Of a stretch of DNA of 20,000 nucleotides, positions 5,075 to 15,356 are shown piece by piece; the stretch's first letter is position 1; the number at the start of each line of letters is the position of its first letter. The notes below the pieces were generated by a model. That model worked only from the letters and a program-made list of their open reading frames with translations, searched no databases and had not been told where the DNA came from. Made by a program: the position numbers and the translations under genes. Origin of the DNA: an uncultured virus (IMG/VR IMGVR_UViG_3300044641_006529) (lineage: Duplodnaviria > Heunggongvirae > Uroviricota > Caudoviricetes); IMG/VR virus record IMGVR_UViG_3300044641_006529. One strand, written 5' to 3'.

Positions 5075-5224
5075 ATGAACAAAACGGTCAAAATAGCAAC
5101 AATATTAATAGGCGTAGGACTTGCGGGTTTTGTGGGCTACAAAATCTATAATTACTATCGCTTTCGTTCGGGAAACCCAATTAAAGACAATCGTAAAATT
5201 GATATAGTAACCGATAAGAAATGA
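5075..5224 (+). CDS. Small single-TM membrane protein, 49 aa (not in the ORF track)
   Basis: MNKTVKIATILIGVGLAGFVGYKIYNYYRFRSGNPIKDNRKIDIVTDKK*. Fills the gap and its TGA overlaps the next ATG (ATGA, 5221-5224). Confidence 0.8.
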   Translation: MNKTVKIATILIGVGLAGFVGYKIYNYYRFRSGNPIKDNRKIDIVTDKK

Positions 5225-5715
5225 AAAAAAAAATTACAACTCCGATAATTCTCGGTGTTGCTACATTTATTGTAGTAGCTGGGATTTTTGTTTATTCTCA
5301 AATAAACAAGCTGAAAAACTTTACGCTTAAATTTCATAAGATAAAGAACTTTAAGGCTTCGTTGAGCGCAATAACTTTTGACCTTTATATGAAGTTTACA
5401 AATAACTCTGATATTCAAATAGCTTTGGTCGAACAAAACTATAAGATATATCTTAATGGTACATTTGTAACAAACCTAAGTTCAAAGGACAAACAAGTGA
5501 TTGCGCCAAAAGGGGATTCAATTTTAAAGGTGGGTGTTAATATTACCGCTGCACGTTTGGGTACACTATTAGGTTCAATGTCTGTGCAAGAGTTGGGCAA
5601 AATCAAGCAACAAAAACTGCGTATTGATAGCGAAATTAAATATGACCGTAATGGCAAAACACTATCATTCAGCACAAGTTCAGAAGATACAATTCAAAAA
5701 TGGATTGAGGAATAA
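5221..5715 (+). CDS. LEA_2/WHy-like domain protein with N-terminal membrane anchor
   Basis: N-terminal TM (PIILGVATFIVVAGIFVY), then LEA_2-like pattern FTNNSDIQIAL..QNYKIYLNGTFV....QVIAPKGDSILKVGV. Confidence 0.65.
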   Translation: MKKKITTPIILGVATFIVVAGIFVYSQINKLKNFTLKFHKIKNFKASLSAITFDLYMKFTNNSDIQIALVEQNYKIYLNGTFVTNLSSKDKQVIAPKGDSILKVGVNITAARLGTLLGSMSVQELGKIKQQKLRIDSEIKYDRNGKTLSFSTSSEDTIQKWIEE

Positions 5716-5721
5716 TTGAAT

Positions 5722-5729
5722 TATATTTG
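5722..5729 (+). promoter_or_regulatory. Bacteroidota sigma-A -7 element (TATATTTG)
   Basis: Matches TAnnTTTG, intergenic, 21 nt before the ATG at 5751. Confidence 0.6.
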
Positions 5730-5750
5730 TACTCATAAAATCAAATCAGT

Positions 5751-5993
5751 ATGAATATGTTTAGCAACCTTATGGGCGGTCTTATTGACAAAGAACAGAT
5801 TACCCACGATACAATCCAAACTACTCTTGAAAACATTGCAGAAGAACTAAACTGCAACTGGAACGAGTTTTTTGTAATGATTAAGCCTACCGACAACGAG
5901 TTTGAAATGAAGTTTTACATTTACCAACAAGCTACTGGCGAAGCACCAAAGTTTGTTCGTGAAATTTCGCTCAAAGAGATATTGGGTGGATAA
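5751..5993 (+). CDS. Hypothetical acidic protein, 80 aa
   Basis: Clean ORF with a promoter box upstream, packed against the next gene; no recognised motif. Confidence 0.7.
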   Translation: MNMFSNLMGGLIDKEQITHDTIQTTLENIAEELNCNWNEFFVMIKPTDNEFEMKFYIYQQATGEAPKFVREISLKEILGG

Positions 5994-6001
5994 ATAATTT
6001 A

Positions 6002-6715
6002 ATGCTTATGAGTTTACTTGCAGACTTTTTTTCGACCATTTTAGCTGGGGAATCAAAAACTTATAACGACCATAATTGGTACATTACTGGAAGTAAACTA
6101 AAGGGCTACATTCAAGGTGGCTTTGGAACGCCCTATTCATTACTGGGCAATAAGCCTTTAAGCGAACACACCATTGGTGAAGTTATGCAATTTCAATCAA
6201 GGGGAAGGGATGCTACGGGTCAATTGTGGGCTACGGGTAGGTATCAAATTATACCCACAACTTTTAAAGGGTTAGTTTCTGATTTGAAGCTAAAAACCAC
6301 CGATAAGTATGACAAAGCAACCCAAGATAAAATGGGATTGCGCTTGCTTACGGAAAGAACCAACTTGCGTAACTATTTAACATCAGCCGTTCCCGACACT
6401 ACACAAAATCTTGAAAAAGCTGCTTTATCGGTTGCTATGATATGGAGTTCGGTTGGAGTGCCATATCAAGTTCAAGGCAAATATGGAACGGTTCAAAAAA
6501 ACCAGTCGTATTATTCGGGCGGTGGTGATAGGGCAAGTATTACAACCGAAAAGGTGCAAGAAAAACTAAAGGCGTTAAGAAATAATTGGTTAGCAGCAAC
6601 AACGGAAACGATTGTTGAAAAAAAAAAATTAGTTGGTGCGTTCGCTTTTTTGCTTGTATTAGCATCGGGCTGGGTCGCATATCGTCTTTATATAAAAAAA
6701 CCTATAATTCCGTAG
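6002..6715 (+). CDS. Lysozyme-like muramidase/lytic transglycosylase (lambda-R/GH104-like) with C-terminal TM anchor
   Basis: Candidate catalytic Glu in AGESKTYN, TIGEVMQFQ, ATGRYQIIPTT and TQDKMG motifs. C-terminal KKKLVGAFAFLLVLASGWVAYRLY helix. Confidence 0.8.
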   Translation: MLMSLLADFFSTILAGESKTYNDHNWYITGSKLKGYIQGGFGTPYSLLGNKPLSEHTIGEVMQFQSRGRDATGQLWATGRYQIIPTTFKGLVSDLKLKTTDKYDKATQDKMGLRLLTERTNLRNYLTSAVPDTTQNLEKAALSVAMIWSSVGVPYQVQGKYGTVQKNQSYYSGGGDRASITTEKVQEKLKALRNNWLAATTETIVEKKKLVGAFAFLLVLASGWVAYRLYIKKPIIP

Positions 6716-6718
6716 AAT

Positions 6719-7339
6719 ATGACATCACCTAAACTTGTTGATTTAATACATTCACTAAAAAATAAAGATTATGTGGTTTTTGAAGAACCGTATAAATTAA
6801 ATATTGTAGGCATACGCTCGGCTGATGCAAAACAAAATTCATTCGATGATTTAATTTGTGTTTTTTATAAAGACGACAACAATAAGTGGGAGTACAATTG
6901 TTATGCAGCAACCACCGACCCAGGCACATATTTTCTTAACAACCCTATGAGCGGTCTTGGTACAGCCGCTTTAAAAGAGGGGCAATATATAGATGCTTAT
7001 GCACAAGGGTTGCACAAAGGTCAGTATAAAGCACTTGTTCAAGCTGAACCAGTTACAACATATCGTGACCCCGATAGAAATTCCATATTTGATTTTAACA
7101 GCAAAACAACAACTGGCAAGTATGGTATAAATATTCATAAAGCTGGTGCTAATAGCGAAGTAGTAAATAACTGGAGTGCTGGTTGCCAAGTTTTTAAACG
7201 CTCAAATGACTTTGCTGATTTTTTAAAATTAACCGACACACACCGACAAAAGTATGGTAACAAATTCACCTACACTTTGCTTGACGAACGAGCGGACTTA
7301 AAAAAAAAAGAAGATACCTCTTGTACGCATCTCTCTTAG
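6719..7339 (+). CDS. L,D-transpeptidase (YkuD)-like peptidoglycan-active protein; -1 frame extension to 7428 adds a TM anchor
   Basis: GINIHKAG...NWSAGCQVF gives the His...S-x-G-C arrangement of YkuD-fold enzymes; ATTDPG motif. Ends shortly after an A10 tract at 7300-7309. Confidence 0.7.
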   Translation: MTSPKLVDLIHSLKNKDYVVFEEPYKLNIVGIRSADAKQNSFDDLICVFYKDDNNKWEYNCYAATTDPGTYFLNNPMSGLGTAALKEGQYIDAYAQGLHKGQYKALVQAEPVTTYRDPDRNSIFDFNSKTTTGKYGINIHKAGANSEVVNNWSAGCQVFKRSNDFADFLKLTDTHRQKYGNKFTYTLLDERADLKKKEDTSCTHLS

Positions 7340-7428
7340 TTCTCGCTGGTGGGGTATTTGTTTATTGGAAAGGCTATTTCAAAGAGTATTTAAAAACGCC
7401 AAAACAACTAATTAACAATTTAAAGTAA
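7300..7428 (+). CDS. Out-of-frame C-terminal TM segment of the upstream gene (reached by -1 frameshift or one extra A)
   Basis: -1 frame reads KKKRRYLLYASLLVLAGGVFVYWKGYFKEYLKTPKQLINNLK*, has no ATG of its own, and stops 2 nt before the ATG at 7431. Confidence 0.7.
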   Translation, partial: KKKRRYLLYASLLVLAGGVFVYWKGYFKEYLKTPKQLINNLK

Positions 7429-7430
7429 AA

Positions 7431-7871
7431 ATGATTATTAGCGGAAAAGTAAAAAGTAATGGTAATGATTTGCTAATTGGTGCGATAGTTTACGAATCGT
7501 CCGAAGCGGGTGCGCCTATCAATAATGTTGCAACAACGACAAGTGTTGATGGAAACTACACGCTCAATACAAAAGCAGCCAATAGCTATCTTACGGCAAA
7601 GCTAATAGGATATTCAGCTAAAACTATAAAAGCAGAAAATCCAAGTATTAATTTCGTATTACAGCCTACTACACAAACATTGGGTACGGTGGAAATATTT
7701 GCGGATGCACCAAAGCCCCCCGAACCGCCAAAGCCTCAACCACCACCACCCAAAATAAGCTGGTGGGATAAAAACAGCCTTTACGTTTATTTGGGTGCTG
7801 GGGCATTAGCAACAATAATTATTGCAGCAATCATAACCTCGCAAATTAGTAAACCAGTTAAAGGTGCATAA
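7431..7871 (+). CDS. CarboxypepD_reg-like (SusC N-terminal extension-like) domain, Pro-rich linker and C-terminal TM
   Basis: ISGKVKS..NDLLIGAIV...TTTSVDGNYTL...LTAKLIGYSAKTI...INFVLQP..QTLGTVEI follows the SusC/TonB-dependent receptor NTE pattern; then PKPPEPPKPQPPPPK and LYVYLGAGALATIIIAAII. Confidence 0.75.
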   Translation: MIISGKVKSNGNDLLIGAIVYESSEAGAPINNVATTTSVDGNYTLNTKAANSYLTAKLIGYSAKTIKAENPSINFVLQPTTQTLGTVEIFADAPKPPEPPKPQPPPPKISWWDKNSLYVYLGAGALATIIIAAIITSQISKPVKGA

Positions 7872-7877
7872 ACCTCC

Positions 7878-7903
7878 AAAGCAGCCAATCGGTTGCTTTT
7901 TTT
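7878..7903 (+). terminator. Rho-independent terminator between the convergent arms
   Basis: AAAGCAGCC-AATC-GGTTGCTTT hairpin followed by a T run, between the stops at 7871 (+) and 7902 (-). Confidence 0.75.
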
Positions 7904-8570
7904 ATTTTGGTAGCGTTGCTAAACCAAAGCCAAGTAAAAACCCGAAGCCAATTTTTGCCCCAGCCGTTTCATACCAACGTTTCTTTTTCATCAAATAAAT
8001 ATTGTCGAAATTGGTAAGTTGAACGTTGGGGTTGTCTATTTTTAATCGTACAACTTGATGTGACTTCCCTAAAAACCTTCCTCTCCATCCATTTACCAGC
8101 GTATCCCCCACAGCATAGGTAAAATTAGCTTTCGTAATGAACGAATCTATTTGAATGGCATTTTTTGTAATAGTTCCACCGACTGAATACCATTTGTCTG
8201 TTTTGTAAAATGACTGAGGCACGGACAAACACGAATCACCACAATTGTTTTCGTTGGTTTGCGCTAAAGGTATTTCGGTTTTTGTTACAATTTTAGTTTG
8301 CACTTTAACTATTTCTTTAGGCTTACGCATTTCCAGTTCTTTGATAATTTGTGCATAATTATCTTTTATACCATTAGCGGTGCTAAGTTTGTAACGCAAA
8401 CTAACCAATTGACTTGAATCAGCTTCACGTCTTATTATGTATTTATTGTTTTCCGACTGGGCAGCGGTCAGTTCTCTTTCGATTTGCGACACGTAACTGG
8501 CTTCATTGATAGCAAATAGTGTAAGTGCTGTAATAACAGCGGCTATAAGTAGCATTTTAACCTTTTCCAT
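7902..8570 (-). CDS. Putative spanin-like lysis protein (N-terminal TM, coiled coil, beta region, hydrophobic C-terminus)
   Basis: N-terminal hydrophobic helix, helical periplasmic stretch, C-terminal KKKRWYE..KIGFGFLLGFGL. Architecture recalls DUF6549-like proteins near Bacteroidota phage lysis genes (by eye). Confidence 0.5.
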   Translation of the reverse strand: MEKVKMLLIAAVITALTLFAINEASYVSQIERELTAAQSENNKYIIRREADSSQLVSLRYKLSTANGIKDNYAQIIKELEMRKPKEIVKVQTKIVTKTEIPLAQTNENNCGDSCLSVPQSFYKTDKWYSVGGTITKNAIQIDSFITKANFTYAVGDTLVNGWRGRFLGKSHQVVRLKIDNPNVQLTNFDNIYLMKKKRWYETAGAKIGFGFLLGFGLATLPK

Positions 8571-13180: not shown

Positions 13181-13931
13181 GTTAGCAGTAATACTACATT
13201 CCATCTCCGAATAGAGTTTTCTGCGTTAAATCTTTTTCTTTTCTTTTTTCTTCCCACGCTTTAAAAAGTAGTTTTGGGTCTTGTTTGTAAATATAAAATT
13301 CTGTTTTGTCAAATAAGCCACTTGCATAATACCAACTTGGAAATGGTGGTCTATCTCCGCTATATGATATTCGCTTATCAAACATCATTACATTAAAATC
13401 TTTTGCTTTTGAAATTATCTTTACAAAACTCGCACTTTGAATTGAGGTAGCCGACATTAGTAGGCAAAATGGTTTATTCAATCCTATACACCTTTCAAAT
13501 ATTTTGTTTTTAATACTAAATGGTGGGTTTGTAATTATTACATCATATTGTTCTGTTGGTTCGTAATTTAAAAAATCTTGTCCATTATCAATATGTGAGT
13601 GTATTACATTAAACCCTTCAAGTTTAAATACTTTTACATATTCACTCCGTTCCTTGTCGCAAGGACACCATATCGTTTTAAAGCCCTTATTTTTCATAAA
13701 AGGCACAAGTATTTCTACTATGTATTTCGGAGTGTAATATTCATCTCCTTGTTCTGTTACTATCTGTAAACTCATATTTTTAATTTTATTTTAATATTTT
13801 GCCCTCGCACAAAAAAAAAGAAAAAGGTTCGGTTCTTCTATTGAGCATTTGTGGTTAATTACCGTACTATTGCTAACACCACCTATACGCAAGTTTTGTG
13901 AAAAACAAAACCTGACGTATAGCTGTAAACG
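13181..13931 (+). mobile_element. Integron-like gene cassette carrying the adenine MTase (gene antisense to the attC-like site)
   Basis: Begins GTTAGCAGTAATAC (13181-13194). Its near-complement GTACTATTGCTAAC (13864-13877, 12/14) opens an attC-like hairpin that ends at G|TTAGGT (13931). Confidence 0.55.
13194..13775 (-). CDS. Phage DNA N6-adenine methyltransferase
   Basis: DEYYTP, IWCPCD, GQDFL, DVIITNPPFS (motif IV) and FDKRI; no cognate endonuclease nearby. Confidence 0.85.
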   Translation of the reverse strand: MSLQIVTEQGDEYYTPKYIVEILVPFMKNKGFKTIWCPCDKERSEYVKVFKLEGFNVIHSHIDNGQDFLNYEPTEQYDVIITNPPFSIKNKIFERCIGLNKPFCLLMSATSIQSASFVKIISKAKDFNVMMFDKRISYSGDRPPFPSWYYASGLFDKTEFYIYKQDPKLLFKAWEEKRKEKDLTQKTLFGDGM

Positions 13932-14642: not shown

Positions 14643-15356
14643 TTAAAATAAAGTAGTTTGAATTGCTGGTTTATAATCGGCAGCATAACGACCATTTATT
14701 CCTTTAGGGTATGGATGAATTGAATAAGCCAGTTTTTGCCTCATTTCTTTGATGGCTCTTTTGCTCCCCAGCAAGTAGAAATAACGGTGCTTTTGACTAC
14801 GTGCTTTATGATACACGTTATCCGCTCCAAATTTTTGCTTTAACAGAGCAATCCTATCTGTGTTTTCGGGTAGTTCGTCCATTCTGCCAACTTTCTCCAA
14901 TATGGTTGTTGCGTGTAGGTGTTCGTATCCTTTTACCATTACATCATATCTGACCTCTGTTAAACCAGTATAAATCCAGTTAGTCGCTTGGTAAATATAT
15001 CCGTGATGCTTTTGTTCGGTGTCAGCATAGCTAACTATAACGTGCGGCTTTGGTAACAGCTTTAAAGATTGTGAAACGAAAAACGAGAGTGCGTTTTTAG
15101 TTAGACCTTCATTAACGACCAGCCGATTTAACTCTAAGAACGTTTGCTGAAAACAACCACTAAATGCGCCTTCAATTAATGATGCTGCCATCGGTCTGCC
15201 AAATGTTATTACCCCTACCAAATATTTGTTACTATCAAATAGCCCAAACGCATAGCTTATACTCGGCAACCTACGTGCGTAGTGTTTCTTTAAAATCCAA
15301 TCGTGTGTTTGGAAATTGTCAATTGATGATACGCTGTAATTCGATTTAACTGGCAT
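14643..15356 (-). CDS. mom: Mom-like (phage Mu Mom family, GNAT fold) DNA adenine-modification enzyme
   Basis: KKHYARRLP...FGLF...GVITFG.P...LELNRL...SFFVSQSL...IVSYADTEQKHHGYIYQATNWIYTG...KHRY. Confidence 0.8.
   Translation of the reverse strand: MPVKSNYSVSSIDNFQTHDWILKKHYARRLPSISYAFGLFDSNKYLVGVITFGRPMAASLIEGAFSGCFQQTFLELNRLVVNEGLTKNALSFFVSQSLKLLPKPHVIVSYADTEQKHHGYIYQATNWIYTGLTEVRYDVMVKGYEHLHATTILEKVGRMDELPENTDRIALLKQKFGADNVYHKARSQKHRYFYLLGSKRAIKEMRQKLAYSIHPYPKGINGRYAADYKPAIQTTLF

Follow-up and report, generated by a model that had tools for sequence, protein, structure and literature searches.

Poly-A tracts at the membrane-anchor junctions of two adjacent phage cell-wall enzymes as candidate slippage hinges

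Two neighbouring cell-wall enzyme genes of an uncultured tailed phage each carry a long run of A between the catalytic domain and a C-terminal membrane helix, and the two runs have opposite default frames. The genes lie in a stretch of 20,000 nucleotides from the virus record IMG/VR IMGVR_UViG_3300044641_006529 (Caudoviricetes), which is called the window here. Gene 1 codes for a lysozyme-like enzyme and holds an A11 run that keeps its anchor in frame, and gene 2, whose open reading frame (ORF) begins three bases past the gene 1 stop, codes for an L,D-transpeptidase-like (LDT-like) enzyme and holds an A10 run that leaves its anchor in the −1 frame (Table 1). An earlier note on this DNA had pointed out the like tracts and their opposite defaults; the arrangement is real and recurs in two related loci, L055 and L063, in each of which a gene 1 with an in-frame A11 run is directly followed by a gene 2 with an out-of-frame A10 run. 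We tentatively propose, with a confidence that stays somewhat below an even chance, that these tracts are paired slippage-prone hinges, which would switch the enzymes of a conserved two-enzyme cell-wall-degrading module between a tethered and a free form in uncultured freshwater phages. The comparative sequence evidence for such a hinge is strong for gene 2 and moderate for gene 1.

In the proposed mechanism, each hinge would lie between the catalytic domain and the C-terminal membrane helix, so that the gain or loss of a single A would decide on the attachment of the helix. Gene 1 is encoded in its anchored form, and RNA polymerase slippage on the A11 run would give a minority of transcripts that are one A shorter or longer, of which the shorter one would yield, in the window, an anchor-less enzyme of 209 amino acids. 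Gene 2, by contrast, is encoded as the free enzyme, and one additional A in the RNA, or a −1 shift, would attach the anchor. We infer that slippage occurs during expression, at whatever rate, and that lysis depends on how much of each enzyme is tethered and how much is free. The slippage would act in transcription, and genetic switching may take place at the same tract over evolutionary time; the two are not exclusive. According to the available text of PMC6260861, the RNA polymerase of E. coli slips only on runs of 7 or more T's and requires longer runs when the base is A, and that of PMC5009743 gives frame-corrected transcripts as 12–50% at long poly(A) runs of endosymbiont cell-wall genes and as 25–30% for Shigella spa13. 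Because the A10–A11 tracts are in the range where bacterial RNA polymerase slips, transcriptional slippage appears to be the best reading of them. It is more doubtful that homopolymer recoding with opposite defaults, through polymerase slippage on A10–A11, sets a fixed proportion between the tethered and the free state, for the lysozyme and the L,D-peptidase alike.

The two enzymes and their junctions

Table 1. Positions of the two enzyme genes, their anchors and the three long A runs in the window
Feature	Position	Strand	Description
Gene 1	6002-6715	+	237 amino acids; catalytic domain residues 1 to ~198, linker, Lys run, C-terminal membrane helix
A11 run, in frame	6618-6628	+	Glu206, Lys207-209; junction of catalytic domain and anchor; G at 6617
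Gene 1 anchor coding sequence	6629-6712	+	Residues 210-237; helix ~210-227, then basic tail
Gene 2, zero frame	6719-7339	+	206 amino acids; predicted YkuD / L,D-transpeptidase-like fold; ends 10 codons after A10, no anchor
A10 run	7300-7309	+	Gene 2 junction; +1 A in RNA or −1 ribosome shift joins anchor frame
Gene 2 anchor, −1 frame	7310-7428	+	Arg-Arg-Tyr-Leu-Leu-Tyr, hydrophobic helix, basic tail; stop 7426-7428
Third A10 run	5224-5233	+	Codons 2-4 (Lys2-4) of gene 5221-5715, 164 amino acids, N-terminal membrane helix

The earlier note had placed an in-frame A11 run at the junction of gene 1 and had predicted an immediate stop for the A10 state, and both statements hold in the sequence and its frame translation: the run is followed by Leu-Val and then by a hydrophobic stretch of 18 residues, and the loss of one A brings a stop one codon past the run and a product of 209 amino acids. 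Gene 1 matches the PHROG profile phrog_90, annotated as endolysin (E = 1.4e-16). Its AlphaFold model, built with 52 sequences, has a predicted local distance difference test score (pLDDT) of 86 and a helix at 211-230, and the Gly16-Glu17-Ser18 motif is invariant in these 52 sequences, with Glu17 in the first helix region. When the model was compared by VIA-align with ~48,000 solved chains, the best rows were the cyanophage baseplate protein 8kea_A (Z 9.7, 147 residues aligned, root-mean-square deviation (rmsd) 3.7) and the lambda lysozyme 1am7_A (Z 8.6, 136 aligned, rmsd 4.5), followed by lytic transglycosylases at Z 4–5, the best at Z 4.7. A Foldseek search of gene 1 against the PDB gave nothing at E ≤ 0.001 (best E 0.025), Pfam (E ≤ 0.01) and NCBIfam gave no family for gene 1 or gene 2, and a sequence search of the PDB gave no match for gene 1 and nothing meaningful for either enzyme. 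It is therefore reasonable, as far as the predicted model goes, to assign the catalytic domain of gene 1 to the lambda-lysozyme-type / lytic transglycosylase fold, with "lysozyme" used as the name of a fold.

Gene 2 matches phrog_3000 (E = 1e-40) and phrog_33083, annotated as endolysin (E = 1.1e-12). Seventeen of its 19 best VIA-align rows have the L,D-transpeptidase fold (Z 4.1–7.2, with a low-confidence model of pLDDT 57), and His140 and Ser153-Ala-Gly-Cys156 are invariant in 28 sequences; a conserved His together with a Ser-x-Gly-Cys motif is what we take to be diagnostic of YkuD. The name LDT-like is thus again a reasonable name for a predicted fold, and the lysozyme and LDT identities proposed in the earlier note are supported at the level of structure alignment, more tentatively for the LDT. 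Read in the −1 frame from 7297, the junction gives Lys-Lys-Lys-Arg-Arg-Tyr-Leu-Leu-Tyr and then a hydrophobic helix, which matches the motif of the in-frame homologs L006, L008 and P0124.

Two other identities were considered for gene 1. We rejected that of a signal-anchor-release (SAR) endolysin, as the N-terminus is occupied by the catalytic Gly-Glu-Ser and the sole hydrophobic helix is C-terminal. As for membership of PHA02564, no entry for the Enc34 endolysin was found among the 50 VIA-align rows shown, and the corresponding chain may be unlisted. The PHROG profiles that match the catalytic domain (window 6002-6600) span 632–1168 positions, which indicates that such a lysozyme domain commonly occurs within large virion proteins; in gene 1 the domain stands alone with its anchor.

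The earlier note had also expected a conserved stop right after the run of gene 1, and this did not hold up. After the loss of one A, the 15 clusters of gene 1 homologs with long runs reach a stop 1–9 codons past the run (median 4), and in run-less homologs that frame, counted from where the helix begins, is open for a median of 5 codons (Mann-Whitney P = 0.075). After the insertion of one A, the medians are 2 codons in long-run and 11 codons in run-less homologs (P = 0.079). Any frame shift at this junction soon hits a stop because the stretch is A+T-rich and codes for a helix, and an immediate stop as a designed, conserved feature was rejected, the distances being within chance. In effect, the anchor is lost in 15/15 long-run clusters after a one-A deletion and within 5 codons in 10/15 after an insertion. 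A conserved other frame after one-A insertion was likewise rejected, since the resulting tail has 34 codons in the window and 0–22 in other lineages.

Frame and tract among relatives

The gene 2 family comprises 3,597 matches and occurs on at least 600 IMG/VR stretches. Among the 99 homologs that were scored in their loci, at least 80 end shortly past the catalytic domain without an anchor, at least 13 have an in-frame C-terminal helix, and in three (the window, L055 and L063) an A10 run is followed by a helix that lies in the −1 frame. The junction of most anchored members is rich in Arg and lacks an A run. In all three of these out-of-frame loci, for which DNA is at hand, the run is A10 and the same shift is needed, that is, one more A or −1. 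Since L055 and L063 lack any ATG, GTG or TTG within the anchor frame, these anchors cannot be separate genes, and the possibility that the tail is a separate small membrane-protein gene was rejected for both; in the window, the anchor frame has a single start-like codon, a TTG that falls within the conserved motif. Over the 32 codons of the out-of-frame anchor, L055 and L063 differ at 24 bases, with 12.8 synonymous changes for 20.8 sites and 11.2 non-synonymous changes for 75.2 sites (ratio of non-synonymous to synonymous rates, dN/dS, ~0.13; binomial P = 0.0005), and the catalytic domains of the same pair have a dN of 0.128 and a dS of 0.512. This dN/dS of the anchor indicates that its frame is, or very recently was, translated.

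Frame loss in gene 2 is tied to the Lys runs. In 160 clusters among the matches listed, a stop directly follows the junction in 8 of the 17 that have Lys-Lys-Lys there but in just 2 of the 143 that do not (Fisher P = 1.1e-7). The truncated clusters, which have at most 20 members each and come from several sources, show 69–98% identity to L055 and 84–96% to the window. Among clusters with a Lys run, truncation is found in 1 of 36 for gene 1 compared with 8 of 17 for gene 2 (P = 0.0002); the frame of gene 1 is thus intact in 35 of 36.

Several side observations concern gene 2. P0144 (210 amino acids), which has an Arg-rich junction, looks frame-shifted there, with a basic non-hydrophobic tail in place of the helix of P0145, so that frame loss in gene 2 is not wholly confined to Lys runs. 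Tandem copies of gene 2 occur in L053 (3222-3815 and downstream), L056 (957-1550 and 1558-2241) and L063 (1642-2229 and 2245-2847); the first copy is anchor-less, and the second is anchored, in frame in L056 and out of frame in L063. In L018, L028, L039 and many IMG/VR loci (e.g. L164, L167 and L172), an anchor-less gene 2 runs at its end into an overlapping small membrane-protein gene with its own start, which may be the unfused counterpart of the anchored form. Where both enzymes were found, their genes are neighbours but the order varies: gene 2 precedes gene 1 in L006, L008, L017 and L022 and follows it in the window, L055 and L063.

Gene 1 has 496 homologs, of which 120 clusters were listed, and a C-terminal helix tail is present in 118 of the 120 clusters among these listed matches. 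The two without a tail are P0041 (209 amino acids), which ends directly after the Lys run, and P0060, which ends earlier; P0007–P0009 were flagged by a crude helix filter yet have a helix, which contains Pro. The DNA tests used 69 complete anchored homologs, which form 38 clusters at 80% nucleotide identity. Left out were ORFs that run off the contig end (L023, L060, L066, L070 and L073), homologs below 44% identity, homologs without a C-terminal helix (L068, L069, L077–L079, L082, L083, L087 and others), and L024, in which an A+T-rich lysozyme gene changes abruptly at ~2320-2432 into unrelated G+C-rich sequence, probably as an assembly chimera. The anchor-less L080, which does not belong there, was counted as one of the 38 clusters; its share is 2 observed and 2.75 expected, which leaves the result unchanged.

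An A9–A12 run stands just before the helix in 15 of the 38 clusters. When the synonymous codons were shuffled for each locus according to its own codon usage, the pooled clusters exceeded this null model both in the summed length of the longest A run (254 observed, 227.8 ± 9.4 expected, P = 0.0018) and in the number of clusters with runs of at least 9 (15 observed, 8.3 ± 2.0 expected, P = 0.0004). Within the Lys runs of the junction, Lys is written as AAA 44 times and as AAG 5 times, against 37.9 AAA expected. The junction Lys-Lys-Lys is pure AAA in 7 of 9 clusters, and the other two have AAG as the last codon, with a run that is still A9–A10. As a control, Lys-Lys-Lys elsewhere in the same loci is pure AAA in 6 of 28 cases (11.7 expected), two of which are gene 2 junctions, and the difference between the junction and elsewhere is significant (Fisher P = 0.004). 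The excess of AAA over AAG that the earlier note had proposed as a check is therefore present in part: Lys-Lys-Lys stays unbroken until A9 in 9/9 clusters, but most homologs are anchored without such a run. The AAA AAG AAA spelling that it had contrasted with these tracts was found, as described, in the spanin-like gene 7902-8570. Since poly-A Lys runs are usually avoided in these phages, the place where they are kept would imply a second selective pressure on the synonymous codons.

The residues around the run of gene 1 vary (Glu, Val, Gln or Leu before it; Leu, Ile, Tyr, Pro, Asn, Ser or Thr after it), and the run stays at 9–12. On a tree of the catalytic domain, the long-run state takes ~8 changes (bootstrap range 7–9). 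The median end branch has 0.32 amino-acid changes per column, from which we reason that the synonymous sites should be saturated.

The tract lengths were followed in Logan contigs, to which all 24 sequencing runs are reduced and which drop rare length variants. Run X2, from another sample and study, has one contig over 5973-7267 and a second over 7243-7446, both with zero differences from the window. Run X6, likewise from another sample and study, has a contig over 7113-7371 with zero differences, and thus the same A10, and a contig over 6567-6754 that carries G6617A and therefore an in-frame A12 in gene 1. The A10 run was thus seen in X2 and X6 and the A11 run was confirmed in X2 only, and this agreement with contigs from other studies indicates that the tract lengths of the window are not an assembly slip. 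The closest protein relatives of gene 2, P0122 (96% identity) and P0123 (84%), from other sources, are also 206 amino acids long and have the same short out-of-frame tail. In run X4, contigs of depth 2–3 stop either side of both tracts (6570-6650 and 7296-7312), which would fit low depth or length heterogeneity and is not taken here as a sign of the latter.

Competing explanations

Several results weigh against the slippage hinge. The A run is dispensable, because 23 of the 38 gene 1 clusters keep their anchor with a longest A run of at most 7, and the system does not extend to the whole family. No single gene 1 cluster beats the expectation from codon usage (all P ≥ 0.17; P = 0.27 for the A11 of the window). 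The clusters are related, and well-supported branches force only at least three origins of the long-run state, so that fewer than 15 are independent. As judged from the sequences, gene 1 has no conserved alternative frame, so that its slippage product would be a truncation only, and the constraint on the gene 2 anchor could date from in-frame ancestors. A third A10 run, in gene 5221-5715, has no plausible two-product role, which shows that this phage writes Lys runs beside helices as poly-A anyway. This run is not conserved, being missing in 4/4 homologs found (L005, L006, L008 and L046). By base composition, on the other hand, the tracts are more than chance: runs of at least ten A number three in the window, against 0.096 expected, and all three fall within 5224-7309 and adjoin a membrane segment. 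The product of gene 5221-5715 has a weak LEA_2-like domain, and slippage at its run could only abolish the protein.

The explanation that draws most on these results is that the tracts are a by-product: in a phage with 37% G+C that prefers AAA, a Lys-rich stretch beside a helix becomes poly-A, slippage on it would be harmless noise, and the run would not be selected against as the free domain works. Lys-rich stretches are a frequent element of topology beside membrane helices, and the window, with a G+C content of 37.1%, uses AAA 283 times and AAG 109 times, and GAA 210 times and GAG 70 times. The absence of individually significant gene 1 clusters, the majority without a long run, the third tract at the start of another membrane protein and the chance distance to the stop are all as this explanation would have it, and the mostly anchor-less state of the gene 2 family indicates that loss of the anchor is tolerable. 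However, relaxed selection predicts runs at the level of codon usage, and the pooled clusters lie above it, both in the number of long runs and in the share of pure AAA compared with Lys-Lys-Lys elsewhere. It also leaves unexplained the open and constrained out-of-frame anchors of gene 2 and the need for the same +1 A shift in every out-of-frame case with DNA. We consider it unlikely, although it deserves serious weight.

According to a second explanation, only genetic switching is at work: slippage in replication would change the run length between generations and produce anchored and free alleles, with nothing special in expression. In-frame and out-of-frame alleles of gene 2 are indeed interleaved among close relatives, as the identities to L055 are 98, 87, 78, 75, 73 and 69% for truncated clusters and 85, 82, 82, 82, 80 and 79% for anchored ones. 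Only 2 of ~30 residues distinguish the tail of P0245, which is in frame, from that of L063, which is not, and this near identity indicates that the frame of gene 2 switched recently. The tie of frame loss to the Lys runs and the gene 1 cluster P0041, which stops right after its run, also speak for such switching. What it fits less well is the stability of the states, as A10 and A11 are the same in contigs of other studies and the truncated allele is kept down to the 84% identity of P0123. Moreover, the A11–A12 runs of gene 1 are rarely out of frame though at least as mutable, which selection for the anchor could also explain. We regard genetic switching as the sole process as somewhat less probable again than a by-product, while the slippage hinge would, as said, be compatible with switching at the same tract.

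The second product may also arise by ribosomal −1 frameshifting, or by sliding of the ribosome on the A-rich stretch, instead of by polymerase slippage. The slippery heptamer A-AAA-AAA is present inside the runs, AAG comes next in the −1 frame of L055 and L063, and the protein would be identical to that after a one-A insertion. According to the available text of PMC4363877, iterated AAA lowers protein output in E. coli more than AAG does. On the other hand, no stable RNA structure was found in the 87–91 nt downstream of the tracts (z against shuffled sequence +1.82 and +0.14 in the window, −0.53 in L055 and −0.77 in L063), which lends no support to a stimulated frameshift; an unstimulated one may occur, and some sites work without a structure. 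In gene 1 of the window, a −1 shift would lead to the 34-codon tail, which is unrelated and non-conserved, and not to a clean truncation. We hold this route to be improbable.

That the mirror image is an artefact of homopolymer sequencing or assembly, with a true gene 2 in frame, is very hard to believe: runs of 10–11 are error-prone, the depth of the compared runs is low (2–8) and the X4 contigs stop short of the tracts, but X2 and X6 agree on A10, X2 agrees on A11 (the A12 of X6 coming from a base change), P0122 and P0123 share the truncated tail, and six further truncated clusters of the L055 clade have 1–20 members each, one of them on 16 contigs.

Known systems and genome context

The closest parallels to gene 1 are the endolysins Enc34 ORF39 of a Hafnia phage and M4Lys of Salmonella phage BSPM4, which, in the accounts available, have an N-terminal lysozyme-type catalytic domain, a C-terminal membrane domain and no N-terminal signal, as gene 1 does. 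The same partial accounts give the chi-like phage Siskin and LysAP of Acidovorax phage AP1 as further sources of endolysins with a C-terminal transmembrane part like that of gene 1. In contrast to the Enc34/M4Lys type, the catalytic domain of gene 1 resembles lambda lysozyme more than PHA02564, gene 1 has one predicted helix and not two, and it is adjoined by a second anchored enzyme of another fold. The available text of PMC8943055 describes a C-terminal membrane domain in endolysins as uncommon, with no known route that exports the N-terminal domain, and reports that only the full-length proteins of Enc34 and M4Lys are toxic and that their lysis is holin-independent. By analogy with these two we infer that the anchored forms would act alone at the host inner membrane and that the free forms would depend on a holin, and the analogy suggests that only the anchored form can lyse without one. 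No homopolymer at the junction is described for Enc34/M4Lys-type endolysins in the available portions of PMC8943055 and the related literature, and no published homopolymer control of an endolysin membrane anchor was found in a literature represented mostly by titles and the openings of abstracts.

As for the tract itself, Shigella spa13, other type III secretion genes, Citrobacter tssM, IS elements and endosymbiont cell-wall genes resemble the present case in having a run of ~9–11 A in the coding sequence and a C-terminal part in the other frame, and in spa13-type systems both the run and the downstream frame are conserved, as far as the available texts of PMC5009743 and PMC4256274 go. Here, unlike in those systems, the proteins are phage lysis-type enzymes, what would be switched is a membrane anchor, and adjacent genes have opposite defaults. 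The gene 2 tract is also similar to the phase-variable contingency loci of bacteria in that the frame toggles among close relatives; contingency loci, however, usually switch a whole gene near its 5' end, whereas here only the C-terminal anchor is concerned and both states give an enzyme. In SAR endolysins, membrane-tethered and free states serve as a control of access to the wall. The likeness of a tethered and a free state of one enzyme is also drawn in the available text of PMC8943055; the difference is that the SAR helix is N-terminal and released after synthesis, while the helix here is C-terminal and the proposed choice would fall at the level of mRNA or protein synthesis.

We judge that what would be new here is to meet homopolymer recoding or phase variation, both known in themselves, in C-terminally anchored endolysins. 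If the more doubtful reading with fixed proportions is true, lysis would be timed or localised in a new manner, and no recoding signal for the anchoring of an endolysin would have been described before it. How the catalytic domain of C-terminal-anchor endolysins, which have been described only recently, reaches the wall is an open question in the available text of PMC8943055, and one gene that gives anchored and free forms would allow a direct test of the role of the anchor. There is also a consequence for annotation, as the genome sequence of gene 2 alone would predict a wrong, anchor-less product in many relatives, and calling such genes either complete or broken would mislead.

The earlier note had placed the anchored enzymes in the virion membrane, with a role in entry, and for this we found no support; the genes upstream of gene 1 resemble tail-fibre or virion proteins, and tailed phages are known to have endolysins that are anchored at the C-terminus. 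The window DNA has no match among 50,697 phage DNA records, and the protein matches among phage records are three weak ones to Synechococcus phages (28–29% identity). When genomes of bacteria and archaea were scanned for a host, the matches were two loci, both weak and unrelated, from which no host could be assigned. The sequencing runs that contain the phage are mostly labelled as lake water metagenomes.

Directly after gene 2, the window codes at 7431-7871 for a third C-terminally anchored protein, with a Pro-rich linker and then a membrane helix. Its N-terminal carboxypeptidase-regulatory-like domain (Pfam E = 2.4e-7, just under the cut-off; NCBIfam E = 3.1e-11) is of a kind seen at the start of SusC/RagA outer-membrane proteins, which hints at a Bacteroidota host. 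Farther downstream, a divergent block on the minus strand holds, at 13194-13775 and 14643-15356, a DNA methyltransferase-like gene (phrog_799, E = 5.7e-31) and a Mom-like DNA modification gene (phrog_1384, E = 7e-55).

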